64,000 bases of DNA from a bacterium (GCA_965216315.1 CBDCFN010000016.1:352001-416000); one strand, 5' to 3'; shown: positions 3,536 to 24,496, counted from the stretch's first letter. Program-made: numbers and translations. The notes: a model not told the origin generated them from the sequence alone.

Positions 3536-3542
3536 TTAAATG

Positions 3543-4565: not shown

Positions 4566-4603
4566 GAATTTCGCGTAGTTACGTGATTTTTGGGTCAAAT
4601 TCT

Positions 4604-5539: not shown

Positions 5540-5544
5540 ATTTT

Positions 5545-7399: not shown

Positions 7400-7408
7400 G
7401 GAGTTTCG

Positions 7409-7675: not shown

Positions 7676-7689
7676 AGCGGAGGTGATCG

Positions 7690-8514
7690 ATGGAGCAAGT
7701 CCTCCAGCTGCTCGGCTTTGAAATCGATTCCGGTCCGGCGCTCATCACGATGATGCTGATTTTGACGCGCATCTTTATCATCATCAACTTGATCCCCTTT
7801 CTCTTCGGCAATCCCGTCCCTGGGCTCGTCAAGCTTGGGGCTACCTTCATTTTTGTTGTCATCTTGTTTCCGTACATCTATCCGGGGGTGCCGGAAGGGG
7901 CCTATGACAACACCCTGTTTGTCGTGACGCTCTTTGTGAAAGAGGCCTTTTATGGGTCGGTGTTGGGACTCGTTGTCTCGATGATCTTTTATGCCTTTGA
8001 TTCCGCGGGGCAGATCATCGACAACCAGCGCGGGGCCTCGATGGCCCAGATCTTTTCACCCCAGACCGGGCGCCAGGTGACGATTTTTGGGTCCTTTACC
8101 TTTCAGCTGTCGGTCGTGATGTTCTTGTCTTTCGGGGGGCACATCATGTTCTTTCAGGCCCTCGGCCAGAGCTATGCCTACCTGCCCATCTATGAGATGC
8201 CGGCGGCCGGGGTCAATTTCTACAGCACGGTGATTCACTTCATCAAGGTGACGGGGACGGTCCTCTTTATCGCTGCCCAGTTGGCGGCCCCGATCCTGAT
8301 TTCGATCTTCGTCGTCGACCTGATCCTCGGCGTCATGAACCGCATCTCGCCGGCGATCAACGTGTTGACGCTCGGTTTCGCGATTCGCGGTATCATGGGG
8401 GTACTGATCTTCTTCCTCGCCTTTACGACGATTGCCTATCAGATGAAGGTCCTGTCGATCCAGAGTCTGGAGAATGTCACCCGGACGATTCGTTTTTTGG
8501 CGACGGGCGGGTGA
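7690..8514 (+). CDS. sctT: Export gate SctT/FliR
   Basis: Multi-TM; AGQIIDNQRGA (SctT-type), DLILGVMNRISPAINV. Confidence 0.92.
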   Translation: MEQVLQLLGFEIDSGPALITMMLILTRIFIIINLIPFLFGNPVPGLVKLGATFIFVVILFPYIYPGVPEGAYDNTLFVVTLFVKEAFYGSVLGLVVSMIFYAFDSAGQIIDNQRGASMAQIFSPQTGRQVTIFGSFTFQLSVVMFLSFGGHIMFFQALGQSYAYLPIYEMPAAGVNFYSTVIHFIKVTGTVLFIAAQLAAPILISIFVVDLILGVMNRISPAINVLTLGFAIRGIMGVLIFFLAFTTIAYQMKVLSIQSLENVTRTIRFLATGG

Positions 8515-8552: not shown

Positions 8553-8579
8553 GCAACTTTGGGTCGCTCGAGGCGATAA
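8553..8579 (+). promoter_or_regulatory. Sigma28(FliA)-like promoter GCAACTTT-N11-GGCGATAA
   Basis: -10 is one mismatch from GCCGATAA with canonical 11-nt spacer; same variant -35 as at 10888. Confidence 0.55.
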
Positions 8580-8589: not shown

Positions 8590-10743
8590 ATGGCTTATTT
8601 TATGGCGGGGGGGATTGCCACGACTCAGCTTGCGTCGGCTGGTGTCCCTGCCCTGAATTCAGGAATTTTATCAGCCCAGTTGCTCAGCCAACCGGCGGTC
8701 TTCGGCGAAATGGCGCCCGGAGCCCCGTTGGCCCTGTCGCTGCAAAGCCCTTATTCCCTGCAACGAACCCAGGCCCGCGAGAATGCCGCGACCGACGCGA
8801 CCTTTCAGGCCGCCGTTCAATTGTTGGACGATATTCAGCGTGGCGTTGATCCCGCGGAGGGAACGGCCGCCGCGTCATTGGATCGCGCTCGTGCGGCGAC
8901 CTTTGTCAGCCGCCTCCAGCGCGAGATCGATCAGGCCTTAGCGCAGACCGCACTCGGTGACCTGGCGGAACCGCTCCGCCAAATAATGACGCAGCATCCG
9001 GAGTTGGCGACTGCCGACCTGGCGACCTGGCGGGAAAATGACTTAGGCCGTAACTTTATCGAGCGCGTCAAAAATCTCTATCGTGAGCAATATTTAGGTT
9101 TTAGCGCCTTTCGTGCAACGACGCAGCTTCCCGGGACGGAGCAGGTTGCCGCCTTGGAAAATGCGGTGCGGGCGATCTATGGCGACGCCGGCCAGGCGCT
9201 GCTCTCCGAGCTGGCGCAAGAAAATCTCAGTGAACTCTTACAACGCGAGAGCTTGGCCGAGCGGGTTTCGCCGGAGGTGTTAGCCAGGCTTTTCCCCGCG
9301 GGACAGCCGCCGTTGACCGAGCGGTACCAAAAAATGGGTCACATGGCCCTGTTTGCGCGCTTTGTCGTGACGCAGCGTCAGTTCATGGAATCCCTCGTCG
9401 GTTCCCCGGAGCGCGTCGAACTCTTTTGGACCTTGCGTGGCTTGGAACTAGAGATGTCGCGACGGGATGATTTCGAGTCGGATGCGTTCAAGACCTTGAT
9501 GCGGCGGGTCCAGATGCCGGACTTAAGCCCCGTTGACCGGAGCCGTTATTTCGCCCTCCAAGAGGCTGTGGCCAAGAGTGGGGCGAATCCGGATCCAGCC
9601 CTCCAGGCGCAAGTCACCGAAGCGCTCCATTATTTTTCTCAGCGGACCGGTGAAACCGATTTAGCAACGGATGCTGGCCAGCATTTTGCCTACCGGGATG
9701 TCGTGCAACAGGTGGCGCTCCTGGCGCTCCGCGTCGGCGTCTCGGCGGAGGACATCAGACGGGAGACCAGCGGACAGGGGACGGCCCCATCGAATGAGCC
9801 GGTGACGCTCCAGCAGATTTATGACGGCACCCAGGTCGTGACCCTTGACGCACTGCCACCGGAAATAAAGGACATCCTTCGCGCCACGGGCCAGTGGGAT
9901 CTCGTCAATCAGGCGACGCGGCGGGTCATCCTCATGCCGGAGATCGCCTCGACGGACTACGTCAAGATGCTGGTCGGCTCGGCACCGAGCGGCCGGGGCT
10001 ATTTTGCCGACGGAACCCTGGTGATCTCGACCGCCCCGGACGGGCTGCGCTCACCGGTCTGGCGCATTGCCGGGTTGATTGCCCATGAAGCGGCGCATCT
10101 GCGCTCTTTGAATGGGATTATGGACAACCCGCAAGAGCTGATGGGAATGACCTCGAATGTACCTCAAGAGCGGGAGGCCTATGCCTGGGAGTCGAAGTTT
10201 TATCGGAGCTTTCTCAGTCGCTTTGGATCCCGCCTCAATGACGCGGATCGCGCCGCCATTGAGCAAACCGTTTTCAATACCGAGTCCATCGTCTATGCGA
10301 CCAATCTGCTCTTGAGCCATTCATTAGAGGACCTGGAGCCGGGGCGTGGGCTGCAGGCCGATCTGGAAATGCGGCGGTATGGCGGGCTGACCGTCGGGCA
10401 GTTGGATATCAATAGTTATCCGGAGCGGTTGCGGGACTTGATCGGGAGGATTGAGTTTAGTGGGGTCGACGGCATCCATCTCAGTAATTTGCGTTCCCGG
10501 CTGCGGCGTCGGATCGAAGATCTCGAACGGGCGCTCCAGGCGTCGCTACGGTTTCAACGCGAAGAGTTGGAGGCGCTGCGTCGGCAGACCGGATCCGACG
10601 CGCTCAGTCCCGAGGCGATTGCCGCCTTTGAGCAGCAGTTGACCGAGATGCCGGACGGGATCCGTCGGAGCCTTGAGGCCTATCGGCGGCAGTTTGGGTT
10701 GTTGGGGCAGGATAACGGGCATGCCGCGGTCAAACTTACCTAA
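8590..10743 (+). CDS. Hypothetical helical protein with HExxH zinc-metalloprotease motif; candidate T3SS effector
   Basis: LIAHEAAHLR (HEAAH at 10084-10098) and downstream EREAY; no signal peptide seen; follows sctT. Confidence 0.55.
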   Translation: MAYFMAGGIATTQLASAGVPALNSGILSAQLLSQPAVFGEMAPGAPLALSLQSPYSLQRTQARENAATDATFQAAVQLLDDIQRGVDPAEGTAAASLDRARAATFVSRLQREIDQALAQTALGDLAEPLRQIMTQHPELATADLATWRENDLGRNFIERVKNLYREQYLGFSAFRATTQLPGTEQVAALENAVRAIYGDAGQALLSELAQENLSELLQRESLAERVSPEVLARLFPAGQPPLTERYQKMGHMALFARFVVTQRQFMESLVGSPERVELFWTLRGLELEMSRRDDFESDAFKTLMRRVQMPDLSPVDRSRYFALQEAVAKSGANPDPALQAQVTEALHYFSQRTGETDLATDAGQHFAYRDVVQQVALLALRVGVSAEDIRRETSGQGTAPSNEPVTLQQIYDGTQVVTLDALPPEIKDILRATGQWDLVNQATRRVILMPEIASTDYVKMLVGSAPSGRGYFADGTLVISTAPDGLRSPVWRIAGLIAHEAAHLRSLNGIMDNPQELMGMTSNVPQEREAYAWESKFYRSFLSRFGSRLNDADRAAIEQTVFNTESIVYATNLLLSHSLEDLEPGRGLQADLEMRRYGGLTVGQLDINSYPERLRDLIGRIEFSGVDGIHLSNLRSRLRRRIEDLERALQASLRFQREELEALRRQTGSDALSPEAIAAFEQQLTEMPDGIRRSLEAYRRQFGLLGQDNGHAAVKLT

Positions 10744-10887: not shown

Positions 10888-10914
10888 GCAACTATTCGTC
10901 GATCGAGCCGATAA
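10888..10914 (+). promoter_or_regulatory. Sigma28-like promoter GCAACTAT-N11-GCCGATAA
   Basis: Perfect GCCGATAA -10 box, 23 nt upstream of ATG 10938. Confidence 0.65.
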
Positions 10915-10937: not shown

Positions 10938-12413
10938 ATGGGCAGTTATAGCATTTCAATTAGCGGCGCGCATACCCAGACCCTGACCGGGTCGGTGGCC
11001 ATCACGCGGGATGGGAATTTTACCGCGACGGAGCATGGCGCGGCCAAAACCGCCGTCCGTCAGGCCCTCGTTGCGGCAGGCTATTTCGATGGCGGGGGCG
11101 GCCGCTGGTATAAAGATCTTAATGGCGATGGCAATTATACTGCCGATGAGCGCGTCAATATCAGCGTTTCCTTATCCGGCGGCAGCGGTGCGAATTCCAC
11201 CGAGTGGAGCGGCGGGATTGGGACCCTGATGGGGGGAAGTCCTCCGACGGCCATCCCGATGTCCGGGAGTGGCGATACCAACGGCGGCGGTGATACGAAT
11301 GGGACGAACAATGGCACCGGCAATGGCAGTGGCGGTCGGCGTGGGAGCGGAGGACGTACGAGCGGTGGCGGTGGGACGAGTCGCACGACGACTAGTGACC
11401 CCAGCACCTGGACCGGCTATCCGATGCGCATCCGCGTCAAAAAGTCTGATGGGACCTGGGGCGAGTGGCGCACGATCCCTCACGGCCAGGATAACAATTA
11501 TGACGCGAGTGATGCCGAAATCCGCCAGTTGCTCGGGGTTTTGGAAAACGATGATACCGGAGACATGAATGCCCAGGTTCAGGTCGAGTATCAACGCAAT
11601 GGCAGTTGGGGACATGCGGATTCCTTCGATCAATTAGGTCCCCTCTATACCCGGGCCGGGATGGTCCGCCCGGGGGCGACGTCGGGGATGGGCAACGCGA
11701 CGATCAGTTACCGGGATGGCTCGCGGACACGAACGGTGACGGTGCAGTACCGTCTCGATCCCAATTCTGAAGGGGATGTCAGTCACGCCGAGGCGACGCG
11801 CATTCAAGAAATTTTTCGCAACATTCCCGGTTATCAAAGCAGCTGGCGGATCACGCAGGTGCAAGCGGAGGGCAAGACCCTGAATGCCGGTGCTTGGGCG
11901 AGCCGCCTGAGCCCGGATTATCGCTCGCCCAACAGCTCCGGGACTCCCGACGATTTTCTCGATGATTCCTTGAATCGCGGTTTTCTGGCCCGTTTGAGTC
12001 GCAACCGGCAGAGTCGCCGGGCGGAACAGCGGCGTTTGACCGCCATGTTGAATAATCTCCTCAGAGGCGGCCGGCTGAACTGGCGGACCTTCTTAAGCTA
12101 CATCAATCTCAGTGCGATGCGGCGCGAGGCCGTCGTGAACGAGTCCTTGAGCTGGGCGGTGCAGAGCCTGTCCGAAATCGAGGCCCGCCAGGGTGAACTC
12201 AATACCGAATTGCGCGGGCTGAGTTCGTCGGACCGCAACCGCTATACCTCGAGCATGACGCGCATCAACAACGAGCTCAATGAGCTCTCCGGGCAGCGTA
12301 ATTCAATCATGAGCTTTGTCCGCGACTCCAAGTCGGTCTCTGATGAAGGGAAGGAACTCGCGAAGAGTCTCTACGCCGAGCTCCAGCAGGAAGAAATGTT
12401 GATGCGCTTCTAG
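10938..12413 (+). CDS. Putative T3SS-secreted protein, paralogue A1 (EF-hand-like loop, Gly-rich linker, C-terminal helical domain)
   Basis: Strong paralogy with 12685-14067 from STWTG.PMRIRVK onward; DLNGDGNYTADE loop. Confidence 0.6.
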   Translation: MGSYSISISGAHTQTLTGSVAITRDGNFTATEHGAAKTAVRQALVAAGYFDGGGGRWYKDLNGDGNYTADERVNISVSLSGGSGANSTEWSGGIGTLMGGSPPTAIPMSGSGDTNGGGDTNGTNNGTGNGSGGRRGSGGRTSGGGGTSRTTTSDPSTWTGYPMRIRVKKSDGTWGEWRTIPHGQDNNYDASDAEIRQLLGVLENDDTGDMNAQVQVEYQRNGSWGHADSFDQLGPLYTRAGMVRPGATSGMGNATISYRDGSRTRTVTVQYRLDPNSEGDVSHAEATRIQEIFRNIPGYQSSWRITQVQAEGKTLNAGAWASRLSPDYRSPNSSGTPDDFLDDSLNRGFLARLSRNRQSRRAEQRRLTAMLNNLLRGGRLNWRTFLSYINLSAMRREAVVNESLSWAVQSLSEIEARQGELNTELRGLSSSDRNRYTSSMTRINNELNELSGQRNSIMSFVRDSKSVSDEGKELAKSLYAELQQEEMLMRF

Positions 12414-12490
12414 GCAGTGCACGCTGTCCCCCGCAACTGGAACTAGAACCCCCACGAAAACACTATGTCGGAGAATTTTAAGCGGACATC

Positions 12491-12530
12491 TGGGGTCTGT
12501 AGACCTCAAATCCCGGTCCCCTGGACCCGA
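12491..12530. promoter_or_regulatory. Tandem 18-bp palindromic enhancer-like sites (TGGGGTCT-N2-AGACCTCA plus a weaker copy 22 bp downstream)
   Basis: About 110 and 90 bp upstream of the sigma54 box at 12601; motif recurs at 14124 and 25091. Confidence 0.55.
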
Positions 12531-12600
12531 TTTCGTTGATCCCGGGCCGCCGTTTTAATTGTAAGTATTTGAAATTATAAAGGAAATTATTTCCGCCCCT

Positions 12601-12616
12601 TGGCATGAAACTTGCT
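12601..12616 (+). promoter_or_regulatory. Sigma54 -24/-12 promoter TGGCAT-GAAAC-TTGCT
   Basis: Matches TGGCAC-N5-TTGCW; IHF-like site at 12562-12574 just upstream. Confidence 0.8.
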
Positions 12617-12684
12617 ACTTAATTGGGCGGAGACCAAGGGTCCGTGAGGACCATAACAGACGCTAGAATTTATTAGGAATAACG

Positions 12685-14067
12685 ATGGCAACGGCATCAT
12701 TTACCATAACCTATACGAAAAACGGCACTCAGCACACGGCCAATATCACCACGGGTGAACTCGATCGCAACGGTGACGGTCAGGTAACGGCTCGTGAAGT
12801 TGATGAGGCAGTCTCTGCGGCGATCCGCGACTACCGGGTTGATGGTAATCGGGTATTTAACTGCGCGGATAGTGCGACGGCGATTACTGGCCGTTCCGGC
12901 GTAACCATTGATAGTCGCAGTGATGTGACGCTTTCCAATTTGACCGGGCATACGAGTTTTACAATGCCGGCGGTGCTCAATCGAAGTTCTTTATCCGCAC
13001 CGGTCCGGACGAGCAACGCGAGCGATCACTCGACCTGGACCGGACGGCCGATGCGCATCCGCGTCAAGAACGCCGATGGTTCCTGGGGACCGTGGCACGA
13101 GATTCCGCACAGCATGGACACTAATTCTGCCGTGAGTAACGAGGAGTTAGCCCGGTTGCTTGGCACACTTCCCTCAAATGAAACCGGTAATATGGGTGCC
13201 GATGTCCAGATTCAGTACCAGAATTCGAGTGGGCAATGGCACCGTTCCAGCGTTCATAATGAGGACTTGGGCAATCTCTATCCCCGCGCCGGCGTGACCC
13301 CGCCGGGAACCGGTGATGGCATGGGCTGGGCGACTATTAAATATCGGGATGGTAATAATACCCGGACGGTTCGTGTCCAGTACCGCTTGGACCCGAATTC
13401 GCCCAACGACGTCAACCACACCGAGGCGACCCGCATTCGAGATGTTTTTCGCAATCTACCCGGTTACCAAAGCTCTTGGCGCATCACCGAGATCCAGGCC
13501 GAAGGCCAGACTTTGGATGCCGGTGGGTTCGCCAGTCGTCTGAGTGATGACTATGTCTCGCCGAATAATCCTAATAATCCGGATAACCCGGATGACCCGA
13601 ACAATCCGGTCAATGGGGCGATTACGCGTAACCTGACCGAGCGCTTGGGCCGGAGTCGTCGCAGCAGTAAGGCGCAGCAGCGGCAGATCACGATGATCCT
13701 GCAGAGTCTGCTTAGAGGCGGTAATCTAAATTGGCGGACCTTTTTGAGCTATATCAATATGAGTACGATGCGGCGTGAGGCCGTGATGAACGAGGCCCTG
13801 ACCTATGCGGTCCAGAGCCTGTCCGGTCTCGAACAGCGCCAGAGTGAGCTGAATACCGAATTGCGTGGCCTGAGCACGAGTGACCGGAACCGCTATACCT
13901 CGAGCATGACCCGCATCAACAACGAACTCAACGAGCTCTCCGGGCAGCGGACGGCGATCATGAACTTTGTCCGTGACTCCAAATCCGTCTCGGATGAGGG
14001 CAAGGAACTCGTCAAGAGCCTGATGGCCGAGCTGCAGCAGGAAGAAGCCCTGATGCGTTTCGCATAA
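12685..14067 (+). CDS. Putative T3SS-secreted protein, paralogue A2
   Basis: Paralogue of A1 with a different N-terminus; DRNGDGQVTARE loop; (N/D)xP repeat linker; TAGGA RBS. Confidence 0.6.
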   Translation: MATASFTITYTKNGTQHTANITTGELDRNGDGQVTAREVDEAVSAAIRDYRVDGNRVFNCADSATAITGRSGVTIDSRSDVTLSNLTGHTSFTMPAVLNRSSLSAPVRTSNASDHSTWTGRPMRIRVKNADGSWGPWHEIPHSMDTNSAVSNEELARLLGTLPSNETGNMGADVQIQYQNSSGQWHRSSVHNEDLGNLYPRAGVTPPGTGDGMGWATIKYRDGNNTRTVRVQYRLDPNSPNDVNHTEATRIRDVFRNLPGYQSSWRITEIQAEGQTLDAGGFASRLSDDYVSPNNPNNPDNPDDPNNPVNGAITRNLTERLGRSRRSSKAQQRQITMILQSLLRGGNLNWRTFLSYINMSTMRREAVMNEALTYAVQSLSGLEQRQSELNTELRGLSTSDRNRYTSSMTRINNELNELSGQRTAIMNFVRDSKSVSDEGKELVKSLMAELQQEEALMRFA

Positions 14068-14090
14068 TCTAAGTTATTGATATTAGGGAG

Positions 14091-14118
14091 AAAGGCGGCC
14101 TTCATGGCCGCCTTTTTT
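14091..14118 (+). terminator. Rho-independent terminator
   Basis: AAAGGCGGCC-TTCAT-GGCCGCCTTT followed by T run. Confidence 0.85.
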
Positions 14119-14123
14119 ATTGC

Positions 14124-14185
14124 TGGGGCCCTCAGCCCCCATATCCCCGCCTCCAGACCCCAGGGAGTGGGGTATTCAGGGCCTA
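14124..14185. promoter_or_regulatory. Phased enhancer-like sites TGGGGCCC-TC-AGCCCCCA, a half-site AGACCCCA, and TGGGGTAT-TC-AGGGCCTA
   Basis: Three copies about 21-23 bp apart, upstream of the sigma54 box at 14259. Confidence 0.5.
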
Positions 14186-14258
14186 ATTTTTTGGCTTCAA
14201 ATTGTATAATCCCCTGATTTTAGGTATCATTTACTTAGTGCCCCTCTCCGGCGGAGGT

Positions 14259-14274
14259 TGGCATGGGTCTTGCA
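14259..14274 (+). promoter_or_regulatory. Sigma54 promoter TGGCAT-GGGTC-TTGCA
   Basis: GG-N10-GC geometry; implies the ORF-track start at 14258 is wrong. Confidence 0.75.
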
Positions 14275-14296
14275 TCTTAAGTCCGCGAGGACCTCT

Positions 14297-16132
14297 ATGG
14301 ATTTATGTTTGTTTGATAACAGCGCGATCGTTCTTGTCGGGAAGCAGGCCGGACTCTTTGACGTGAGTCATCCGGGCAGTGTCGGTGCCCCAAGCGGTCC
14401 GCAGAGTTCAGTTCAGAACCAGAGTACCTCCAGCTCCGGCGAGGCCCCGCAGTACGAAGCCAAGGTCGAAACCCCGACTTTATTGAGTCCGGAAGAAGAA
14501 GCCGCACTGGCCGACCAGAATTTACGCATGAGCAACGCGAATGTTGACCCCAACAAAGCTGCGATCCAGAGCAATCTGCAGGAGAGTAAACTTATTCATA
14601 AAGAGCAGATCACCTGGTTGGAGCACGTCCTGGGTGCGGATGTCGCCAAGGCCCTGCGCAGTGCCAATAAAGATAGTCTTCGCAATATTTCTGATGTCGC
14701 CCGCATTGTTTATGAAGTGACCGGCGGCGATCTCAAGGCCGTTCAAGCCCTGTTGAATAAACTGCACGCGATCAAGTCATCACTGCCCCGCGAAGCCCGC
14801 GCCGATCTCGATGCAATTACGGGCCTCATTGGAGAGATCGAGACCCGAGCCGCAGCGGATGGATTGAAAATCAGCTCTAGTGCTTCCACGCACGATCAGT
14901 ACAAGGCCCGCTCGGCTGAACTGGAGCAGGTGATCACGAAGCTGCAAGACAAGCTGGCCACGCTGCTCCCCAAAGAGCTCGCCGCTCAGTTGAAGAGCCA
15001 AGGATTTTTAGGCGTCGGTGTGGCCAAGAAGGTCAGCGACGCGATTACCAAGAAATTTGATGCCCAGCTCAAGGAGCTGCGTGCCGAACTCAAGGCGGCC
15101 AAGGACGCCGGCAACAAAGAGCGGGTCCAGTTAATCAAGTCGAAAATCAGCGATGTCCAGGCCAACCAAAAGCAGGCCCTGCAGCAGGCCCGCATTCTCG
15201 GCAAGGTCCTGCAGGCCGGTGACCGGGCGCTTAGCTCCGAGAATCTCGAGCAGATCAATCAATTTTTTAATCTTATTGATGCCCCGCGCGGTGGTGCGCA
15301 GGAAGGTATCCAGGCAGCGGTTCTCAATCTTGATGAGGTCCGTGACCTCGATCAACTCGAAGGCATTGTCAATGTCGTGTTGAACGCCGAAGAGACCGCC
15401 CAGGCCGGGACGCAGTCGACCGCGCATTCCGGTGACGCCGGAGCGCCGCAAGAGTCGTCTTCGGGCGCCGGCATTCAGTCTGCAGGCGGTACCGGTAACG
15501 ATGAGCCGGTCGACGAAGCCGAGATGGCCAAAAAAGTTTTAATGGAAGAAGGCCAGGACATCGAAGGCCAGGGCAGCGGTGCCGGGATTCAATCCGAAGG
15601 CGCGACTGCCGAAGAGCATGCCGAGATCCAGGGTGACTGGATGGGCCTGACGCAGGCCGAGATGGGCATGAAGATCGCCAGTTCGAGCGTCGTGATGGGG
15701 ATTACCTCGTCGTATTACCGCGGCCGCTCGGACGAGCGCAAACTCAAGGGCATGATCGACAAGTTGATCGCCGCGATTTCACGCGGTGATCTCGATGCGA
15801 TCAGTACCGCTCTGATCCTGATCGGACGCCGCTCGCAGGAGAGCCTACGCAAGGTCTCCCTGACGATGATCAAGGCGATGAAATATTATGAAGAACAGCA
15901 GTCGGGCCTCAATGATGAGCTGGAATCCTTGACCCGTGATATGGGTCCGACCTTTGGTGCGGATATGCAGGCGATTAACAACAAGATGAATATGTACTCG
16001 AGTAATCGCCAGGCCCTGATGTCGATGTTCCGTGATACCAAGGCGCAGGTCGATACGATTGAGAATTTAACCAAGTCGATACTGGATATCGAAGGCCGGC
16101 AGAAACGCCAGCTGGCGCAATTCCAGGCCTAA
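14297..16132 (+). CDS. Putative T3SS-secreted coiled-coil protein, paralogue B1
   Basis: GAGGA RBS; N-terminal motif shared with 16233; C-terminal domain related to B2 (MNxYSSNRQA) and more distantly to A1/A2. Confidence 0.6.
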   Translation: MDLCLFDNSAIVLVGKQAGLFDVSHPGSVGAPSGPQSSVQNQSTSSSGEAPQYEAKVETPTLLSPEEEAALADQNLRMSNANVDPNKAAIQSNLQESKLIHKEQITWLEHVLGADVAKALRSANKDSLRNISDVARIVYEVTGGDLKAVQALLNKLHAIKSSLPREARADLDAITGLIGEIETRAAADGLKISSSASTHDQYKARSAELEQVITKLQDKLATLLPKELAAQLKSQGFLGVGVAKKVSDAITKKFDAQLKELRAELKAAKDAGNKERVQLIKSKISDVQANQKQALQQARILGKVLQAGDRALSSENLEQINQFFNLIDAPRGGAQEGIQAAVLNLDEVRDLDQLEGIVNVVLNAEETAQAGTQSTAHSGDAGAPQESSSGAGIQSAGGTGNDEPVDEAEMAKKVLMEEGQDIEGQGSGAGIQSEGATAEEHAEIQGDWMGLTQAEMGMKIASSSVVMGITSSYYRGRSDERKLKGMIDKLIAAISRGDLDAISTALILIGRRSQESLRKVSLTMIKAMKYYEEQQSGLNDELESLTRDMGPTFGADMQAINNKMNMYSSNRQALMSMFRDTKAQVDTIENLTKSILDIEGRQKRQLAQFQA

Positions 16133-16179
16133 ACGGCCGGAATCTGAATGTAGGGGCGCTGCTCGCCGCGCCCGGAAAG

Positions 16180-16208
16180 GCAACTGGAAGAGGCTTTTGA
16201 GCCGATAA
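16180..16208 (+). promoter_or_regulatory. Sigma28-like promoter GCAACTGG-N13-GCCGATAA
   Basis: Perfect -10 box 24 nt before ATG 16233; spacer 2 nt longer than at the other two sites. Confidence 0.5.
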
Positions 16209-16232
16209 AATATTGTTGGAACTGTAAATACG

Positions 16233-18038
16233 ATGGAACTTTATCTTTCACATAGCGACTTACCGATCGTCCTGACCAGGCCGGGGCTGTTTGAGGTCCC
16301 TGTCGCAACGGTGGGTTCAGTCCAAACGGGTGGGACGCAGCCGACGGCGCCTGATGCAACGGTTGCGCAAGGAACGACGATCCCGACGGACGGGACGAAT
16401 GCCGGTCAATTGACGGTTCGCCGCGACACGGCCTGGCCGGAAGTTGGCAACGGTTCGGGACAGCTAGGTGTTCGTTATCGAGATGCTAGTGGTGCATGGC
16501 ACGACCTGCCAGGCTCTGCCATCACGCGGGGGGGCACCGACAATAGAGACCTGACGATTACCTTTCCGGAAACAGCTCGTACCGGGAACGTCGCTTACGA
16601 AATTTTTACAGGTTCGGGTGGATCCCGCACGTATCTCGCCGATGGAACGGCTCCCTTTGCGACGCGGACGGCGACAGATGGCGACGGGACGGCGCGTCCC
16701 GGGCAGACTCAGAGCCCTCCGACGAATGAGGCGCTTGGCTCTGTCGGTGGCGGTACGGGTGAAGACACACGGACCGCACTCAATACCTATGCGACCAATT
16801 TTGAGACCACGACAGGTCCCAACGCGATGCGTTCAATTTTTAATCTCGGGAGCGGTGTCGAATATTGGTCGAGTGGGACGACTTTAAATCCCGCTAATTT
16901 TGATCAAGCCGTGACGGACATGACTGCAGGTCGGGATCGGGTTCAAGCCCTGCGTGATACCGCGGTGTCCGATTTGGGCACGGCGACGACGGAGCTACAG
17001 CGTTTGGAAAATCTCCCGGCTGGCGAAAGACCTGCTGACTATGATACCCAATTATCAGCTGCTCGGACACGGGTTGAGACTTTGCGCACGCAGGTCCGGC
17101 AATATAGCGATTCTTTTGACGCGCATGTGCGTGGTCTGGGCCGAGCCTCTTCTTTCCGTACTATTTATGACGAATTCAGAACCGCACGGACGGCATTGGA
17201 TGGTGGTGATCCGACGCAAATGAGAGATTTTAGACAGCGCTATGATCGTCGTACGGTTGCGTCGTTAGGCAATGGGACCGTGATGGCAGGCATTACAAGC
17301 GGTAATTACACTGGCGAGCAGATCAATGCGGCGCGTACCGAAGTCAATCGGCCGGCCGGCGGTGGCAACGGCGGTGCCGGGACCCAGAGCGCCGGTTTCA
17401 CTAATACCGTCCACGGTATTAACCAAGGCATTAACGCCGTTGCAGGGACTGTCCACAGTGCGGCGAACGTGACGGATGCCCTCGGGCGTCTCACCCGTTC
17501 GTCAGCCAGCATTCCGCCGAACAGCGGCTTTGGCTATGGCGGTTTCGGTGGCGGCTATGGTTTCGGGGGTGGCTTTGGTTTCGGCGGTTTCGGACCGATG
17601 GGAATGATGGGACCGGTGGGTCAGCAAGACCAGCGTGAAGAATCTCGCAAGATCACGATGTTGTTGCAGATGTTGATGCATGCCATCCAGGCGGGGAATA
17701 CGGATGCGATCGGTACGGCCCTGACCTTCATCGCGATGCGCGGTAAAAAGACCTTGTTACAGGCGGCGGCACGCACCGTGCGGGCGATGGAATCTTTTGA
17801 GCGGCAGCAGCAGACGATCAATAATCAGATGGCCAACCTCAATGCCGAGGGCAATCGGAATTATCAGTCGCAGATGATGACCCTGACCAACGACATGAAC
17901 GTCTATTCTTCGAATCGTCAGGCCATCGTCAACTTCCTGCGGGACGTCAAAGGGATGGTCGATGAGCTCGATAATATGGATAAGAGCTGGCGCGATGTGG
18001 CGATCAGACAGCAGACGTCGTTGACTCGATTTGCCTAA
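16233..18038 (+). CDS. Putative T3SS-secreted protein, paralogue B2, with Gly/aromatic stretch
   Basis: Shared N- and C-terminal motifs with B1; GFGYGGFGGGYGFGGGFGFGGFG at 17526-17594. Confidence 0.6.
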   Translation: MELYLSHSDLPIVLTRPGLFEVPVATVGSVQTGGTQPTAPDATVAQGTTIPTDGTNAGQLTVRRDTAWPEVGNGSGQLGVRYRDASGAWHDLPGSAITRGGTDNRDLTITFPETARTGNVAYEIFTGSGGSRTYLADGTAPFATRTATDGDGTARPGQTQSPPTNEALGSVGGGTGEDTRTALNTYATNFETTTGPNAMRSIFNLGSGVEYWSSGTTLNPANFDQAVTDMTAGRDRVQALRDTAVSDLGTATTELQRLENLPAGERPADYDTQLSAARTRVETLRTQVRQYSDSFDAHVRGLGRASSFRTIYDEFRTARTALDGGDPTQMRDFRQRYDRRTVASLGNGTVMAGITSGNYTGEQINAARTEVNRPAGGGNGGAGTQSAGFTNTVHGINQGINAVAGTVHSAANVTDALGRLTRSSASIPPNSGFGYGGFGGGYGFGGGFGFGGFGPMGMMGPVGQQDQREESRKITMLLQMLMHAIQAGNTDAIGTALTFIAMRGKKTLLQAAARTVRAMESFERQQQTINNQMANLNAEGNRNYQSQMMTLTNDMNVYSSNRQAIVNFLRDVKGMVDELDNMDKSWRDVAIRQQTSLTRFA

Positions 18039-18066
18039 TTTTTGACCGAAAAAATGGAATTTTTAG

Positions 18067-18096
18067 AGGGTGGACCGGGTGTCCGCCCTTTTTTTT
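18067..18096 (+). terminator. Rho-independent terminator
   Basis: AGGGTGGAC-CGGGT-GTCCGCCCT plus T run. Confidence 0.75.
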
Positions 18097-18165
18097 GGCA
18101 AAAAACCCAAGGATTATTAGAACTTGTACGGCTCAGACGAAAATGTTATTTTATATCCAGAGGTT

Positions 18166-18810
18166 ATGGATTCGATGGCAAATCCGAAGGATACCGGTGT
18201 ACCCGAGAATCCCGCACCTGAAGGGGCAGAGGCCGGCCCGGAGGAGGTCTCCTTTGATGAGCTCGCCAATCAACTCGAGGCGGAGCTCAAAAAGGTGCCC
18301 CCCCAAAAGCTGGCAGAGGCCCAGAAGCAGGTAGCGGATTTTCTGGGGGGCGACCTGAAATGGGCCGATCTCGCCGATTGGACCCCCGAGAAGCTGCATG
18401 AGACCGCCAAGGAGGGCTACGCCCAATACGAGGCCGCCCAGTACGACCAGGCGGAGATCATTTTTAAGGGGCTGACCGTGCTGGATCCGGACAATTTCTA
18501 CTATCACCAGATGCTCGGGGCGTGTTTTCAGCAACAGAAGAAATTCGCCGAATCCATCGTCGAGTATTCAATCGCGGTCGATCTCAAGCCCGACGATATC
18601 ACCTCTTTTACCAACCGGGGCGAGGTCTACTATGAGCTCAAGCTCTGGGATCTGGCCGAACGGGATTTTAATGAGGCGATCCGCCTCGATACGACCGGAG
18701 GGGACCGCTGGGCCAATCGCTCCCGGCTGTTGTTGAAAAAGCTGGCGGGACTGCGTAGTACGCAACCCGTTGGGGCCTCTGAGCCGAAAATAGAAGCAGG
18801 AGATAAGTAA
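18166..18810 (+). CDS. TPR protein, SycD/LcrH (class II T3SS chaperone)-like
   Basis: GYAQYEAAQYDQAEIIFKGLTVLDP, LGACFQQQKKFAES; three TPRs. Start 18166 or 18175. Confidence 0.75.
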   Translation: MDSMANPKDTGVPENPAPEGAEAGPEEVSFDELANQLEAELKKVPPQKLAEAQKQVADFLGGDLKWADLADWTPEKLHETAKEGYAQYEAAQYDQAEIIFKGLTVLDPDNFYYHQMLGACFQQQKKFAESIVEYSIAVDLKPDDITSFTNRGEVYYELKLWDLAERDFNEAIRLDTTGGDRWANRSRLLLKKLAGLRSTQPVGASEPKIEAGDK

Positions 18811-18813
18811 TTT

Positions 18814-19710
18814 ATGGCCATTGATATGCCAGGCATGCAGACCGGCGCTTCCGATGTGAGGACGCAGACGCCCCCTGTCGTGACGGAGGGGCTCCTTAGC
18901 GGTCAGGTCGCCCAGGAGATCCGTCAGCTGCTCAAGACGGACGTGACGGCCACCGATATGCTGGCCTATCTCTCGCAGCAAGCGACGCGCCTGGCCGATC
19001 TCCAGTCACCGCCTTCGATCAAGGCGATGTCCGCGGACATCCCGCCGCCGCCGGAAGATAGCCCGCTTTGGAATGAATCGGATCCGTCGATGCAGGTCTC
19101 CGATGTGGAGCTGCAGGCCCTTGATGAGTTTACCCAACAGATGGCGGGCATTGCCTCGGAAGGGGGCGATGCGAATGACGCCTGGCTCAACGGGGCGGAT
19201 AGCATCCTCGATAAACTCAAAGAACAATACGGGGATCCGCAGATGGCCATCGGTGACGGCGAGATGACCGGTGGGATCTGGGACTGGATGATGACCGGTG
19301 AAGTCAGTCGTGAGGCCGCTGAGGTCGATGACAGATGGCGTACCCTGATTCAGTCGTTGCTGGCGGATCCCAAGGCCAGTGCGGTTGATGTGCTGATGGC
19401 GATGGGCCAATATTTAACGGAGAAAAACGGGAAGGGACTGACCGAGGCCTTCAAGCTGTTTCACAATAAAGAAGTCGCTTATCAAGAGAATATGGCGGAG
19501 CTGGGCCTGGGCGAAAAGGCCCTCAATCCGACGGAGATGATGCAGGCGCAGGAAGAGATGCGCCAGTTTGGGATGGACTCCCAGATGGGGATGCAGGTGA
19601 TCCAGCAGTTCCGTCAGGACATCGACCGGACGCAGAACTACGTGAAGTCTTCCGCGACGGCGGTTCATCAGACGCTCCGAGCCATGATCCAAAACTACGC
19701 GTTACGATAA
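18814..19710 (+). CDS. Putative T3SS-secreted filament/tip-like helical protein
   Basis: Lies between two TPR chaperones; Met/Gln-rich C-terminal helix ending AVHQTLRAMIQNY, reminiscent of EspA/Bsp22-type termini. Confidence 0.45.
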   Translation: MAIDMPGMQTGASDVRTQTPPVVTEGLLSGQVAQEIRQLLKTDVTATDMLAYLSQQATRLADLQSPPSIKAMSADIPPPPEDSPLWNESDPSMQVSDVELQALDEFTQQMAGIASEGGDANDAWLNGADSILDKLKEQYGDPQMAIGDGEMTGGIWDWMMTGEVSREAAEVDDRWRTLIQSLLADPKASAVDVLMAMGQYLTEKNGKGLTEAFKLFHNKEVAYQENMAELGLGEKALNPTEMMQAQEEMRQFGMDSQMGMQVIQQFRQDIDRTQNYVKSSATAVHQTLRAMIQNYALR

Positions 19711-19761
19711 GTGGGGGAGACGCGTTAGGGTGGCGCGTGAGTTGATACGGGTCGAACTATC

Positions 19762-20364
19762 ATGGATGAGACGTATACGAGGGGTCAAAAGACGACAACG
19801 CGGGAACAGGACCCTAATCCTGACCGGGTAAAACATCTCGCCGAACTCCTTCATCGATTTGCCACCAATAAAATCAGTCTGGCCGATATCGCGCGCCTGC
19901 CGCGCAAAGAATTGCGACGCATGACCGAGATCGGTCATACCAAGCTCAAATACGGTCGTTACAAAGAGGCCTTAGAGATCTTTTCGATGCTCGCCAAGGT
20001 CGACCACAAAAACTATTATTATCGTTCCGCTCTCGGTGGTGTGTATCAGAAGATGAAAAAATGGATCGAGTCCCTGGCGAGTTATACGATTGCCCTCAAA
20101 CTCAATAAGAATGATACCGCCAGCCTCGTCAATCGCGGGGAGATTTTTTTGCGTCATGACAAGTTCAAGCGGGCCGCGGAAGATTTTCGTCGCGCCATCC
20201 TGACGGACAAGGCGGGAAAAAACCTATGGGCGAATCGGGCCCGCTCTTTGGTGATTGCGCTCAAGCGCAGCGTGGAAGCCAAGAAAAATGTGAAGAAAGC
20301 CACCCGGCCCGCCTTGCCGGCATCACGTAAGCCGGTGCCGCGGAGTGCGGGAAGAAGAAGGTAA
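19762..20364 (+). CDS. Second SycD/LcrH-like TPR protein (basic)
   Basis: GRYKEALEIFSMLAKVDHKNYYY, NRGE, and WANRAR shared with the first TPR protein. Confidence 0.7.
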   Translation: MDETYTRGQKTTTREQDPNPDRVKHLAELLHRFATNKISLADIARLPRKELRRMTEIGHTKLKYGRYKEALEIFSMLAKVDHKNYYYRSALGGVYQKMKKWIESLASYTIALKLNKNDTASLVNRGEIFLRHDKFKRAAEDFRRAILTDKAGKNLWANRARSLVIALKRSVEAKKNVKKATRPALPASRKPVPRSAGRRR

Positions 20365-20421: not shown

Positions 20422-21819
20422 TTAATCGTTGTCGTTGAGGATCCCATATTTCTTGAGCAGATTGCGGATGTGCTTCCGGTCGATTCCAGCCTCGCGGGCG
20501 GTCTTGGAGATGTTGTAATTGTTGCGCCGGAGCAGGGCGGCCAGATAGTCCCGTTCAAAGGATTCGACGATCTTTTGCTTGGCCTCTTTGAAGGGCAGGC
20601 CGAGATCGACCTCCGGGAGTTTTTCAGTGACCTCGTCTTCTTCACGTTCCAACTCTTGAAAGACATAGGCTAAGTCCTGACCTTTGACGGAATCCCCGTT
20701 GACTAAGGGGACGACGCGCGAGAGGACGTTGACGAGTTCCCGGACGTTTCCCGGCCATTGATAACGAGTGAGCATCTTGAGGGCGTCATCTTCCACGCGC
20801 GTGACATGAAGGCTGCCATCGGGATTGCGATTGAAATCCCCCTCGGACAAGAAACGTTCGACCAGCATTTCGATGTCATCAGGGCGTTCGCGCAAGGGCG
20901 GAATGAAAATTTTGACGACGGAGAGCCGATAATAGAGATCCTCGCGAAAATTGCTATCAGCGACTTCTTTGCGCAGATTGCGATTGGTCGCGCAGAGCAC
21001 GCGGACATCAATGCTCACCGTATCGTTAGAACCGACCTTTTTGATTTGGCGTTGCTCTAAGGCGCGCAGCAGTTTCGGTTGCAGGTCCATGGAGAGTTCG
21101 CCGATTTCATCGAGAAAGATCGTCCCTCCAGTGGCTTCCTCAAAGGCCCCTTTGCGGGTCGACACGGCCCCGGTAAATGAACCTTTCATATGACCAAAGA
21201 GTTCCGATTCGATCAAATTTTCGGCCACGGCCGAACAATCGAAGACGACAAAGGGTTTATCTTTGCGGGGACTGTTGTCATGGATGGAGCGGGCAACGAC
21301 TTCTTTACCGACACCGGTTTCCCCTTCGATAATAACCGTCGCATTGGTAGGCGAGATCCGACTGAGGAGGCCGAAGATCTGGCGCATGCGCCGTGACCGG
21401 CCGATTAAACGCCCGAATTCGGTTTTTTCCGAGGGCTCCACCTGAACCTTTTCATCGAAAGCAATAAATTCAATGCGGGAGTTGCCGATGCGAATAATAT
21501 CGCCGGGGGCGAGATAGGCTTCTTTGACCCGCGTTTCGTTAATAAACGTGCCGTTAGTGCTCTCGAGATCTCTTAATAGAAAACTGTCTTCTTCCGGTAC
21601 GATTTCAAAGTGAGTCCGCGAGACCGCTCGGTCCTCGATGGCGAGTCCATTGTCCTCTTTTTTGCCGATCGTGATACGGTTGTCTTTAAGGTCCATCTTG
21701 CGGCCTTTGCTGGTCCCTTCAACGACTACGAGCTGGCATTTACGGAGACTGACGACATCCTTGTTTTCGTCGAGTCGTAAGAGTTGGGTATCACTCTCTA
21801 AGATTTCATTTTGCGCCAT
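20422..21819 (-). CDS. FHA-domain sigma54-dependent enhancer-binding protein (Fis-type HTH)
   Basis: FHA (VSRTH, STNGT), [39 protein letters not shown]-terminal HTH. Confidence 0.93.
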
Positions 21820-21838: not shown

Positions 21839-24496
21839 TTAATTTTTTTGTAGCCGAACGTTATAACGTTTGTTTTTTTCGCGGCTCATATCGACGGATG
21901 TGGACCAAGGACGGAACCCGTTCATCTCCACGCGCAAGCTGTGTGAACGGTTGCGTGGGACCTTGCGAATCGTTACGGGAGTTCGGGCCCCGATGCGATT
22001 GCCATCAAAAATAACATCGGCTCGTGGGGGGATGGTTTCGACCTTGATCTCTCCAAACATGCCTTCTAATTTGATCGTACCTAAACTTTTCTTTTTGCCC
22101 CCCTGGAGGCTTACGCTTGATGAATGCTGCATAAATCCATCCTTACGCAGCATTACCGAGGCGCTTCCCGGACGGAGTCCGCTCACGGTGATCGGTGTCT
22201 TTCCTTTATACTCGGAGTTGACATAGACCTCGGCGCCGGAAGGGCTTGATCTAATCGACAGACTGGCCGGACGTCCTGAAGCGACGGGTTTGGGTGCCGG
22301 CGGCGGCGTATAGCGTGGCTCGGGTTTGGGCTCCGGCGGCGGAGTATATCTTGGTTCAGGCTTGGGTTTGGGCGTGGGCTTGGCCTCGCGAATCGGCTTT
22401 TCGACCGGCTTCGGTTTGGGTTTGGGCTCAGGTATTGCTTTGCCCTTGTCTAATGAGGCGATGAGCTTGTCGCCGGATTCTTGTTCGACCTTGACGCTCT
22501 TGGTGAAGACCTCATAGCCGCCTTTTTCCAGCTTGATCGTGTAAAACTTATCCAGCTCAAGGTTGTCGAGTTGGGTCGGGGTCACGCGCCCCGTATCCTT
22601 GCCATTTAAGAAGACCTTGGCCGCCCCCGGCTTGGAACGAACCACTAAAGAACCGAGCTTGGGAGGCGGAGGGGGCTCGGGTTTCTCTTCGAGCTTCGGA
22701 AGCTCAGGAAGTTTAGTCAAGGTAGCGCGGATATTGACCGGATTGAAATTGGCGATAGGAACCGTGCTGGCCCAATCACCGTAACCTTCCTTCTTTAAGT
22801 GAATCGCATAATCTTTTTTGATCTCAAGCTCGCCGATATCGGTTGGCGTGACCTTGCCCGTCTCTTTGCCGTTAAGCAGGATCGCGGCGCCGGGCGGATC
22901 CGATGAGATCTTGAGCATTCCTTCCGCGAGGGCCTGAAGGCTGACATGAACCTTGACGGGTTCTTCCGTCACGAGCGCGACGGTTTTTTCGTAGGGCTTA
23001 TAGTGTTCTCTTTCAATTGAGACTTTGTAGTCATCGCCAAGTGATAAGCGGCTTAAGGTCGCCGGTGTTGTTTTGCCGATGTTTTTTCCATTGAGCAGTA
23101 TCGTTGAATTAGAGGGTTCCGAGCTGACAATGATTGAGCCGTAATCAGCGAGGGGCGGCTTGGGTTCGGGCGGTTCGACGGGCTTTACGGGTTTGTCCGG
23201 GACTGTCGGTCCGACGAGTTCTTCCCAGAGCCCGCTGACTTTGTCGCCGATACCGAATTGGGACCAACTCAGATACCCGGCCGCGCCCAGTGCGAGGAAG
23301 ACGGCCAATATCATCCAGGGTCGCCTTCTTTTCGCCTGCTTGCGGACGATGGTGGGTTCGGGGACCGGAATGGCGCCGGCTTGGGTGGATTCATCGGTGA
23401 CGGATGATTCTTCATCAATTCCGATGTCAGTGCCCGTTCCGGCGTCTTTAATGCCGGCTTCCGTTCCCTGGCCTTCGTCCCCAACGAGGCTTTCACCGGT
23501 GCTGGCCTTGATCAGCAGTGAACGTGTTTTGTCGTCGACATGAGGTCCGCTCTCCTCGGTTGCTTTCATTTCTTTGTCAAAATAGTTTCGGACAAGAGAG
23601 GCGAGGTTGCGCGGTGAAAAATCGATGTACGAGGAATAAAGATATTTAGTGAGTTCGAGATGAAGGTCACCCGCCGTGGCGTAACGGTCCTTGGCATTGA
23701 AGGAAAGGGCCTTGGCGAGTATGGCTTTCAGCGGCCCGGGGATATCATCCGGCAGGTCCATTGTGTTGACGCGGGTCGTGCGGATTTTATTCAATACTTC
23801 AAATTGAGTCTCTCCGGTGTAGAATTTTTCGCCGGTCAACATTTCATAGAGAACGAGGCCTGCCGAGTAGATATCAGTCCGCCCATCGAGCGGTTTGCCG
23901 AGGGCTTGTTCGGGTGACATGTAAGCGATTTTGCCCTTCAGGACGCCGGCCATCGTGTGAGAGACGTTGAGTGCCGCTTTGGCGATTCCGAAGTCGACAA
24001 TCTTGACCTCGCCTTCATAGGAAATGAGGATATTTTGCGGGTTGATATCGCGGTGGACAATATTAAGCTGCTGGCCGTCGGGGCTCGATTTGCGATGGGC
24101 ATAATCAAGGCCCTTACACATTTCACTGACAGCATACACGGCAAGGTCTTCCGGCATCTTGCCCTCGTCGGAGGTCACCCGCCGGATAAGCTCGCGCAGA
24201 TTGGTGCCATGAATGAATTCCATAGAGATGTAGTAGTCATCACCGACTTTACCGAGGTCATAGACTTGAACGATATTGGCGTGCGAAAGCAGAACCGTTA
24301 GCTTGGCTTCATCAACCAGCATCGTGATGAAGTCTTTGTCGGCAGCGCAATGAGGGAGTATTCGTTTGATGGCGAGTAGCTTTTCAAAGCCGTCGACACC
24401 ATAAGTTTTGGCCTTGTAGATCTCGGCCATGCCGCCCACGGCAAGTTTGTCGATCAGCAGATAGCGCCCAAACTGTTTCGGTTCAAAATCGCTCAT
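21839..24496 (-). CDS. Membrane Hanks-type Ser/Thr kinase with multiple PEGA domains
   Basis: GGMAEIY, AIK, HRDINPQN, DFG, YMSPEQ; one TM helix; repeated S.P.GA.V.LNG...G.TP PEGA units; duplicated PEPRYTPPP. Confidence 0.93.
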   Translation of the reverse strand: MSDFEPKQFGRYLLIDKLAVGGMAEIYKAKTYGVDGFEKLLAIKRILPHCAADKDFITMLVDEAKLTVLLSHANIVQVYDLGKVGDDYYISMEFIHGTNLRELIRRVTSDEGKMPEDLAVYAVSEMCKGLDYAHRKSSPDGQQLNIVHRDINPQNILISYEGEVKIVDFGIAKAALNVSHTMAGVLKGKIAYMSPEQALGKPLDGRTDIYSAGLVLYEMLTGEKFYTGETQFEVLNKIRTTRVNTMDLPDDIPGPLKAILAKALSFNAKDRYATAGDLHLELTKYLYSSYIDFSPRNLASLVRNYFDKEMKATEESGPHVDDKTRSLLIKASTGESLVGDEGQGTEAGIKDAGTGTDIGIDEESSVTDESTQAGAIPVPEPTIVRKQAKRRRPWMILAVFLALGAAGYLSWSQFGIGDKVSGLWEELVGPTVPDKPVKPVEPPEPKPPLADYGSIIVSSEPSNSTILLNGKNIGKTTPATLSRLSLGDDYKVSIEREHYKPYEKTVALVTEEPVKVHVSLQALAEGMLKISSDPPGAAILLNGKETGKVTPTDIGELEIKKDYAIHLKKEGYGDWASTVPIANFNPVNIRATLTKLPELPKLEEKPEPPPPPKLGSLVVRSKPGAAKVFLNGKDTGRVTPTQLDNLELDKFYTIKLEKGGYEVFTKSVKVEQESGDKLIASLDKGKAIPEPKPKPKPVEKPIREAKPTPKPKPEPRYTPPPEPKPEPRYTPPPAPKPVASGRPASLSIRSSPSGAEVYVNSEYKGKTPITVSGLRPGSASVMLRKDGFMQHSSSVSLQGGKKKSLGTIKLEGMFGEIKVETIPPRADVIFDGNRIGARTPVTIRKVPRNRSHSLRVEMNGFRPWSTSVDMSREKNKRYNVRLQKN

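Follow-up and report, generated by a model that had tools for sequence, protein, structure and literature searches.

The locus

The stretch of DNA analysed here (the window) comprises 64,000 nucleotides (nt) of a bacterial contig (GCA_965216315.1, CBDCFN010000016.1:352001-416000, i.e., C16:352001-416000) within a 2.96-Mb genome of 98% completeness. Its positions 10938 to 20364 hold five open reading frames (ORFs) named A1, A2, B1, B2 and 18814 (the last also called C18), together with two TPR genes, behind the export-gate genes of a system for type III secretion (T3SS). As judged from pairwise and profile alignments, the five genes are paralogous members of a single family that lacks annotation and is marked by a C-terminal module of ~135 amino acids (aa). 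The family and its module, the fixed place of its genes and their constant partners are matters of observation.

All genes of the array lie on the plus strand, and the ORF coordinates given by an earlier reading of the same DNA (the initial annotation) were confirmed. A1 (10938-12413, 491 aa) is built of an N-terminal EF-hand-like loop, a Gly/Ser/Asn-rich linker, an alpha/beta middle domain common with A2, and the module (12000-12410). Its paralogue A2 (12685-14067, 460 aa) has the module at 13648-14064. B1 (14297-16132, 611 aa counted from ATG 14297) is characterized by a coiled-coil middle and a module at 15710-16129, and shares with B2 (16233-18038, 601 aa; module at 17616-18035) a conserved N-terminus of ~22 aa. 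TPR1 (18124-18810), a SycD/LcrH-like TPR protein and candidate class II chaperone, precedes 18814 (18814-19710, 298 aa), whose module-like part covers residues ~176-293 (19339-19692), and a second SycD/LcrH-like TPR protein, TPR2 (19762-20364), closes the array. Two convergent regulators stand beside this cassette on the minus strand, i.e., an FHA-sigma54 activator (20422-21819) and a PEGA-domain Ser/Thr kinase (21839-24496).

The array does not follow the export gate directly, as had been stated, since an ORF of 717 aa (8590-10743, plus strand) separates sctT from A1. This neighbour has an HExxH motif (HEAAH), no family in Pfam or NCBIfam and no match to the module by BLASTP or by the module hidden Markov model (HMM). 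It shares the sigma28-like promoter type of A1 and B2, and may be a metalloprotease-like T3SS cargo. Scans of the five array proteins and of the 717-aa ORF with Pfam and NCBIfam gave nothing besides TPR in the region.

Genes for FliG-like, SctL, SctN, SctO, FliK/SctP-like, FliM-like, FliN, FliO, SctR, SctS and SctT proteins are found at 40-8514 of the window. The last three form the export gate that precedes the cassette: sctR (6343-7233; Pfam FliP, E 2.6e-62), sctS (7409-7675; Bac_export_3, E 6.8e-26) and sctT (7690-8514; Bac_export_1, E 9.5e-50), all on the plus strand. In the 20 kb upstream of the window there are genes for SctV and SctJ, for a pair of FHA proteins, of which one matches SctD weakly, for a small TPR protein and for a sigma factor of the FliA/WhiG type (E 1.3e-38), besides several small family-less ORFs; the SctU gene is ~390 kb distant. 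Secretin-family matches in the genome are all far from the T3SS locus and none is inside it. Flagellin (PF00669) has no match in the genome at E <=1, and the FliC HMM of the phylum finds none either, so that the flagellin reading of an 860-aa ORF with a flagellin-like start was rejected. Because the locus has no secretin and the genome no flagellin, the locus is a non-flagellar T3SS, without a secretin in the locus and with flagellum-like traits. The T3SS block differs in base composition from the remaining window: G+C is ~58% across the T3SS region (1-26 kb) vs. 40-49% past 26 kb.

The shared C-terminal module

In an all-against-all BLASTP comparison (E-values refer to a six-protein database), A1 and A2 share 61% identity over 375 aa. 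Over the C-terminal ~135 aa the identities are 35% for B1/B2 (E 8e-25), 31% for A2/B2 (6e-15), 30% for A1/B1 (9e-9), 27% for A2/B1 (3e-8) and 23% for A1/B2 (7.5e-7). The alignment of six modules has 21 invariant columns. The initial annotation had proposed that A1, A2, B1 and B2 end in an alignable helical module behind very different front parts; the E-values above bear out the first point, and both BLASTP and the models described below the second.

The protein 18814 had been regarded as more distant, with a similar architecture. By BLASTP it is not significantly similar to the A and B proteins (best E 0.19). By hhalign it matches the module with a probability of 92.9% (E 3.8e-7), which rises to 96.6% (E 6.3e-10, 122 columns) with a module alignment of 91 sequences, in agreement with that description; the module HMM also matches it at E 6.3e-4 among the 18,054 ORFs of the genome. 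On these profile comparisons, 18814 is a distant member of the module family.

A profile of the window's four modules was scored against 1.84 billion representative proteins and matches 87 of them at E <=1e-3 (68 at E <=1e-10), three being the window's own. The module is C-terminal in 84 of the 87; the three other relatives hold it internally, in proteins of 739-1006 aa. Pfam was run on 74 of the 87 and no family cut-off was reached (there were two sub-threshold chance matches), in line with the claim that the module is undescribed. No source gives a name for any of the ten relatives that were looked up, no description of the family was found in the literature (supplements excluded), and a protein atlas queried with the B2 module returned no usable match. 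A word-index search found two close relatives each for B2 and for 18814. The modules align by BLASTP, and the Pfam scans place them in no family foreign to T3SSs; the opposite outcomes are two of the three that the initial annotation had named as counting against it.

Distribution and conserved gene order

The uncultured phylum to which the host belongs was sampled by 93 species genomes, all of one class and of 1.1-4.6 Mb. SctR is present in 93 of 93, i.e., every genome of this small-genome phylum retains a non-flagellar T3SS. About a dozen of them have a second FliP/SctR copy, and this copy is taken as the flagellar one because flagellin was found in all five of these genomes that were tested.

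The profile of six modules matches 22 of the 93 genomes, 16 strongly and six at E 1e-5 to 1e-3, and homologues of 18814 occur in 24. A module match and sctR share one contig in 12 genomes, where they are 3-31 kb apart and on the same strand (12/12); in the remaining ten they stand on separate contigs of fragmented assemblies. The linkage to the T3SS that the initial annotation wished to see checked is thus regular wherever both lie on one contig, but it does not extend to a sixth family member of the present genome, which is unlinked (see below).

The region after sctR was then taken from 12 further genomes (seven with weak matches in the earlier search, two with strong ones and three with none). 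All 12 have the order sctR-sctS-sctT, a gap of 0.2-4.5 kb, TPR1, a gene-sized interval and TPR2. The gene between the two TPR genes is C18 in 11 of the 12 (weak in one), and an ORF matching the module HMM is found in the gap after sctT in eight. The convergent FHA-sigma54 activator follows the cassette in ten, nine of which also have the PEGA kinase. The arrangement with class II-like TPR genes recurs in 12/12 sampled genomes. Because this order recurs across the 12 further genomes, the ancestral operon just after sctRST is X-TPR-C18-TPR, where X is a module protein. Most genomes have one or two module proteins plus a homologue of 18814, the best conserved among the cassette's genes of the secreted type. 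In the present genome X has become four genes, with a pair each of class A and class B; the array of five proteins is a lineage-specific expansion in the family of this genome. A search for related loci with the alignment of six modules found none, and one with a subfamily alignment found three loci with an identical cassette, in genomes already sampled (G052, G054 and G057), which are therefore not independent.

Chaperone candidates

The best family for both TPR proteins is TIGR02552 (LcrH_SycD), with E 2.9e-21 (75.6 bits) and E 2.5e-19 (69.3 bits); the matches span positions 4-117 and 3-119 of the 136 positions of the model. Their description as SycD-like genes interleaved with the array is therefore right as to the nearest family, but both scores are below the curated equivalog cut-off of 104.8 bits. 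In a complex prediction for TPR1, TPR2 and 18814, with 18814 as the partner, the median score was 0.40; the controls in which the partner was replaced gave 0.00, and that in which TPR1 was replaced gave 0.52, so that these scores speak neither for nor against binding.

Predicted structures and N-termini

The model of B2 (62 aligned relatives, mean predicted local distance difference test (pLDDT) of 69) opens with disordered residues 1-53, which are followed by a beta domain (59-141) and a confidently predicted coiled coil (176-356); a disordered Gly-rich linker (380-459) then leads to the module, predicted as helices 462-486, 491-535 and 544-600 with a pLDDT >90. Foldseek relates the beta domain to immunoglobulin (Ig)-like folds at E about 1e-2. 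The model of A2 was obtained from 10 sequences (mean pLDDT 60) and shows an alpha/beta domain at 120-290 (pLDDT 61-86), for which no fold match was found by Foldseek, followed by module helices 311-343, 350-396 and 401-459, i.e., the three helices of B2 recur. In the models, the module thus consists of a short helix and, behind it, two long antiparallel helices that form a hairpin. The module is helical, as the initial annotation had it; in the fold searches, the helical parts gave only generic helical matches.

A hydrophobic helix was not found in A1, A2, B1, B2 or 18814, the maximal Kyte-Doolittle means over 19 residues being 0.61, 0.64, 1.42, 1.24 and 1.03, respectively. Inspection of the translations (no signal-peptide predictor was run) showed no Sec-like charged and hydrophobic N-terminal pattern; the initial annotation had noted both absences, and they hold. 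In the whole family, five of 89 proteins reach at least 1.6, two of them by N-terminal signal-like stretches, and several relatives are most hydrophobic in the opening part of the module.

A loop D-x-N-x-D-G-x-[IVY]-x-x-x-E is found near the N-terminus of A1, of A2 and of the X proteins of small cassettes (L061, L063 and L069); we take it to resemble a calcium-binding-type EF-hand loop, though Pfam did not flag it. Two ORFs elsewhere in the genome have the promoter motif described below and no module match: one of 130 aa (C16:1468133-1468525) starts like a B-class protein and one of 673 aa (C16:2199360-2201381) like an A-class protein. Since these module-less ORFs begin in this way, the N-terminal ~20-40 residues of the array proteins are suggested to be a shared, portable signal.

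Comparison with type III secretion proteins

The module was compared by hhalign with proteins encoded on four annotated plasmids (needle, rod, tip, translocator, gatekeeper, SctO, SctL and SctP). A further 120 MxiH-type needle proteins were added, and the SctF alignment had 122 sequences. SctF is the sole specific similarity of the module among 12 comparator families. The 91-sequence module alignment matches it with a probability of 61% (P 8e-5), residues 65-109 of the module lying on 34-76 of SctF and the hairpin turn of the one on that of the other. With only three needle sequences the values are 42% and P 2.7e-4, and with reversed sequences as controls 0.4% and P 0.14-0.17. For calibration, SctF vs. 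SctI in the identical set-up gives 30% (P 5.6e-4). The module gives at most 0.5% (P 0.11-0.81) against SctI, YopD, IpaC, YopB-type proteins, LcrV, SctA, SctO, SctL, SctP and YopN, and 0.2% (P 0.27-0.33) against flagellin and a HAP3-like protein of the same phylum. The likeness of the module to SctF can thus be called specific but weak, and whether it reflects kinship is about evenly balanced. The likeness to LcrV, SctA and flagellin that had been envisaged was not detected by hhalign.

The needle family PF09392 has a single match in the genome at E <=1, and this match falls inside 18814 (E 0.14). In the Pfam comparison of the protein itself, 18814 matches PF09392 at E 0.047 with 14.3 bits and the SctI family PF17001 at E 0.1, with equally weak unrelated families alongside; the PF09392 score is below the gathering score of 29.4 bits and one of 22 homologues matches. 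The A and B modules do not match PF09392 even at E 10. LcrV (PF04792), T3SS_TC (PF06511) and EspA (PF03433) have no Pfam match in the array proteins or in the homologues of 18814; the Pfam scans thus gave no EspA match, and EspA and Bsp22 were not compared by profile. Language-model look-alikes of 18814 fall in clusters with LcrV, T3SS_TC or EspA families (0.87-0.89), which is a low recognition and a lead only.

A second candidate lies upstream of the window, before the small TPR protein and sctJ. It is an ORF of 183 aa (u183; L002:15385-15936, i.e., C16:347385-347936) with a Gly/Ala-rich front and a helical tail of ~60 aa. Its position corresponds to that of yscF, yscG and yscI before yscJ, and the small TPR protein beside it has weak LcrH_SycD, SctY and CdsG matches. 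The u183 family is present in 70 of the 93 genomes, ~10-13 kb upstream of sctR where checked. Its probability of matching is 72% (P 3.3e-5) for the C18 family and 28% (P 6.1e-4; reversed control, P 0.53) for SctF, whose C-terminal helix is covered up to the last residue. The system is annotated as needle-less, and u183 is a candidate for a protein of the needle or rod type in it.

Regulation

Sigma28-like motifs are found on the plus strand at 8553-8579 (GCAACT-N15-CGATAA), 10 nt upstream of the 717-aa ORF, at 10888-10914, 23 nt upstream of A1, and at 16180-16208, 24 nt upstream of B2. More generally, GCAACT-N14-18-CGATAA precedes the 717-aa ORF, A1, B2, u183 and an ORF of 151 aa (u151) by 10-26 nt. 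The genome contains 57 such sites vs. 0-5 in five shuffled genomes, nearly always 5-150 nt ahead of an ORF. Among the ORFs behind the motif are those of the T3SS, a series of paralogues at C16:2.164-2.186 Mb and many that are lipoprotein-like. The CGATAA half resembles a sigma28 -10 element, and the motif probably marks the regulon of the FliA-like sigma factor of the cluster. Such a pair of sigma factor and promoter motif suggests that a flagellum-like regulatory logic was kept in a non-flagellar system.

A2 and B1 are preceded by sites of another type. The sigma54 consensus is TGGCAC-N5-TTGC, and a -24/-12 site with one mismatch to it lies at 12601-12615 (plus strand), 70 nt upstream of A2. 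A second one, also with one mismatch, lies at 14259-14273 (plus strand), 24 nt upstream of ATG 14297. The B1 ORF was first delimited as 14258-16132; because the database copy, P0009, begins with this ATG and because of the position of the sigma54-like site, ATG 14297 is probably the true start. Two inputs thus appear to drive expression, one sigma28-like (A1, B2 and the 717-aa ORF) and one sigma54-like (A2 and B1), the latter probably fed by the adjacent FHA activator and PEGA kinase. The conservation of these two regulators suggests a phospho-threonine control of some substrate genes. An intrinsic-terminator-like hairpin with a T run follows B2 (18065-18101, plus strand); its stem of 11 pairs is the best in the region. 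A second terminator-like hairpin, after A2, was read by eye and is not in the computed list of hairpins.

Interpretation

The reading that we favour, with a probability somewhat above even, is that the array proteins are chaperoned T3SS substrates which form a distal tip or filament layer. They would be made in the cytoplasm and kept unassembled by both TPR chaperones, and would then leave through the T3SS as late substrates. Beyond the inner membrane the hairpin modules would pack together, perhaps also with the SctF-like protein u183, into the tip or filament layer. The variable fronts would point outward, i.e., the Ig-like domain and coiled coil of B2 and the EF-hand-like loop and alpha/beta domain of A1 and A2. 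We infer export, chaperoning by the TPR proteins and assembly driven by the hairpin from features that are those of substrates (no Sec-like N-terminus, no transmembrane segment, residues 1-53 of B2 disordered), from the gene order and from the likeness to SctF. To call the proteins interchangeable subunits, as had been done, is speculation.

A number of observations weigh against this reading. With regard to linkage, the sixth member of the family (C16:1437003-1438472; module HMM E 1e-8) lies among unrelated housekeeping genes, unlinked to the T3SS, and one of the three loci with an identical cassette has no T3SS core gene within 10 kb upstream. With regard to the needle, (i) the 18814 family gives 0.5-1% (P 0.056-0.11) against SctF by hhalign; (ii) weak PF09392 matches (E <=1) are also found in six of 14 control genomes; (iii) a self-built SctF HMM finds nothing significant among the ORFs of the genome, u183 being sixth (E 4.5) and 18814 and the A and B proteins unlisted; (iv) the module is carried on proteins of ~300-620 aa vs. 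~80 aa for needle protomers. A T3SS family was not found by Pfam for the modules and their relatives, and PDB sequences searched with B2 and with the profiles of the module and of 18814 yielded chance coiled-coil matches only (E >=0.0057). Foldseek found nothing at E <=1e-3 for the B2 and A2 models, the A2 module giving bMERB-like three-helix matches. The VIA wide fold search returned generic helical matches with Z <=10.3 (FliJ, Z 8.5), whereas helical models commonly reach 13-14. The sigma54 pattern has 68 matches in the window vs. 56.5 expected, i.e., no overall enrichment. Lastly, the locus has no secretin, which leaves the crossing of the outer membrane unexplained.

The array proteins could instead be of the translocon type, i.e., equivalents of SctE and SctB acting on a target membrane or on the outer membrane, with SycD-like class II chaperones. 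We consider this unlikely, and what keeps it in view is the class of the chaperones: for both TPR proteins SycD/LcrH is the nearest family, and chaperones of the SycD, IpgC and SicA class serve translocators in known systems. The place behind the export gate also parallels lcrH-yopB-yopD, ipgC-ipaB-ipaC and the SPI-1-type locus of Providencia, which has the same gene logic (sctRSTU, then sicA, sctE, a sipC-like gene and sctA). Each system here has two conserved substrates, X and C18, and the first part of the module is the most hydrophobic stretch in several relatives. Transmembrane-grade hydrophobicity is however not reached in the five proteins of the window (maximum 1.42), and five of 89 proteins of the family reach at least 1.6. 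By hhalign the module gives P >=0.12, and C18 P 0.021-0.5, against the YopB/AopB/IpaB/SctE, YopD/AopD and IpaC/SipC families. Moreover, X and C18 are homologues, which SctE and SctB are not.

It is rather improbable that the proteins are ordinary effectors or toxins, whose activity would reside in the variable parts while the module would be a domain they have in common for chaperone binding, targeting or an immunity-related task. What speaks for this explanation is the unlinked sixth copy and the variable parts: the fronts are very different, there are multiple paralogues per genome, the module is internal in three relatives of 739-1006 aa, and the neighbouring HExxH protein is under the same promoter type. 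Against it, X and C18 occupy a constant place in the core operon even in families of the phylum that are far apart, as effectors usually do not, and an enzymatic family was found neither in the 74 relatives nor in the fold searches. The known chaperone-binding regions of T3SS substrates are N-terminal, whereas the module is C-terminal.

Non-secreted cytoplasmic coiled-coil regulators or scaffold parts (gatekeeper-, ruler- or anti-sigma-like) are improbable. The long coiled coils, the generic VIA hairpin matches, FliJ included, and the tight linkage to genes for a sigma54 activator, a kinase and a FliA-like sigma factor would suit them. In known systems, however, SycD-like chaperones accompany substrates that are secreted, the locus already has SctO, SctP, SctL and FliG/M/N-like parts, hhalign gives P >=0.28 against SctO, SctP, SctL and YopN, and Ig-like and EF-hand-like display domains better fit an extracytoplasmic life.

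If the preferred reading, i.e., a chaperoned tip or filament layer, is carried further, the basal T3SS described as needle-less would have an axial appendage, which u183, the 18814-type proteins and the module proteins would jointly form from SctF-like hairpins joined to large display domains, and in which paralogues under distinct promoters (sigma28-like vs. sigma54-like with kinase input) would swap the presentation at the tip. This extension is doubtful. If true, the appendage would be a missing link between the axial proteins of flagella and the needle, tip and filament proteins of injectisomes.

Comparison with known systems

With the SctF needle (MxiH, YscF and AscF; PF09392) the family has in common the helical hairpin, the turn-on-turn profile match and a TPR-type chaperone nearby. 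Many homologues of 18814 and u183 also end in an I-I-x-N-F/I-R/K-like pattern, as do MxiH and YscF. Unlike SctF, the proteins are of 298-611 aa, add a helix ahead of the hairpin and ~17 residues behind it, and match PF09392 below the cut-off or not at all.

The filament proteins EspA and SseB and the SctA tips (LcrV, IpaD/SipD) are, like the array proteins, chaperoned coiled coils with a globular display part, secretion being predicted for the latter; they are encoded with translocators. The array proteins differ in having no Pfam match, and hhalign gives P >=0.11 against LcrV/AcrV and the SctA of Providencia. As with SctE and SctB and their chaperones (SycD/LcrH, IpgC and SicA), SycD-like TPR genes are interleaved with at least two substrates after the export gate; unlike SctE and SctB, the array proteins are without transmembrane helices or sequence similarity to them and are mutually paralogous.

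Flagellin and the hook-associated proteins also combine conserved terminal helices with a variable middle, and the sigma28-type promoter logic of flagellar axial genes can be likened to that of the array. The differences are that PF00669 matches nothing in the genome and that hhalign gives P >=0.27.

A further parallel is the T3SS* of Myxococcus, described as needleless. The 'Myxo' class of non-flagellar T3SS was described as being without SctF, tip and translocon (Abby and Rocha 2012; PMC3459982), and in the parts of the literature cited here the early-branching secretin-less systems, of which the T3SS* is one, are said to lack needle, tip, translocon and known substrates (PMC3459982, PMC12075869). 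FliO is known in Myxo-type T3SSs (PMC12403147). As far as these accounts go, the T3SS* and the present system agree in lacking a secretin in the locus and any annotated needle, tip or translocon, as well as in FliO and in the FHA, PEGA and kinase regulators around them (PMC3459982, PMC12075869, PMC10849154, PMC12403147).

The present system differs from the T3SS* in that a conserved cassette of chaperones and substrates and a 183-aa SctF-like gene are visible, and in its host, a small-genome uncultured phylum. Candidates for the missing outer components, or first substrates, of a secretin-less T3SS can thus be named from the cassette, and the HMMs of the module, of 18814 and of u183 can be used to seek their relatives elsewhere.

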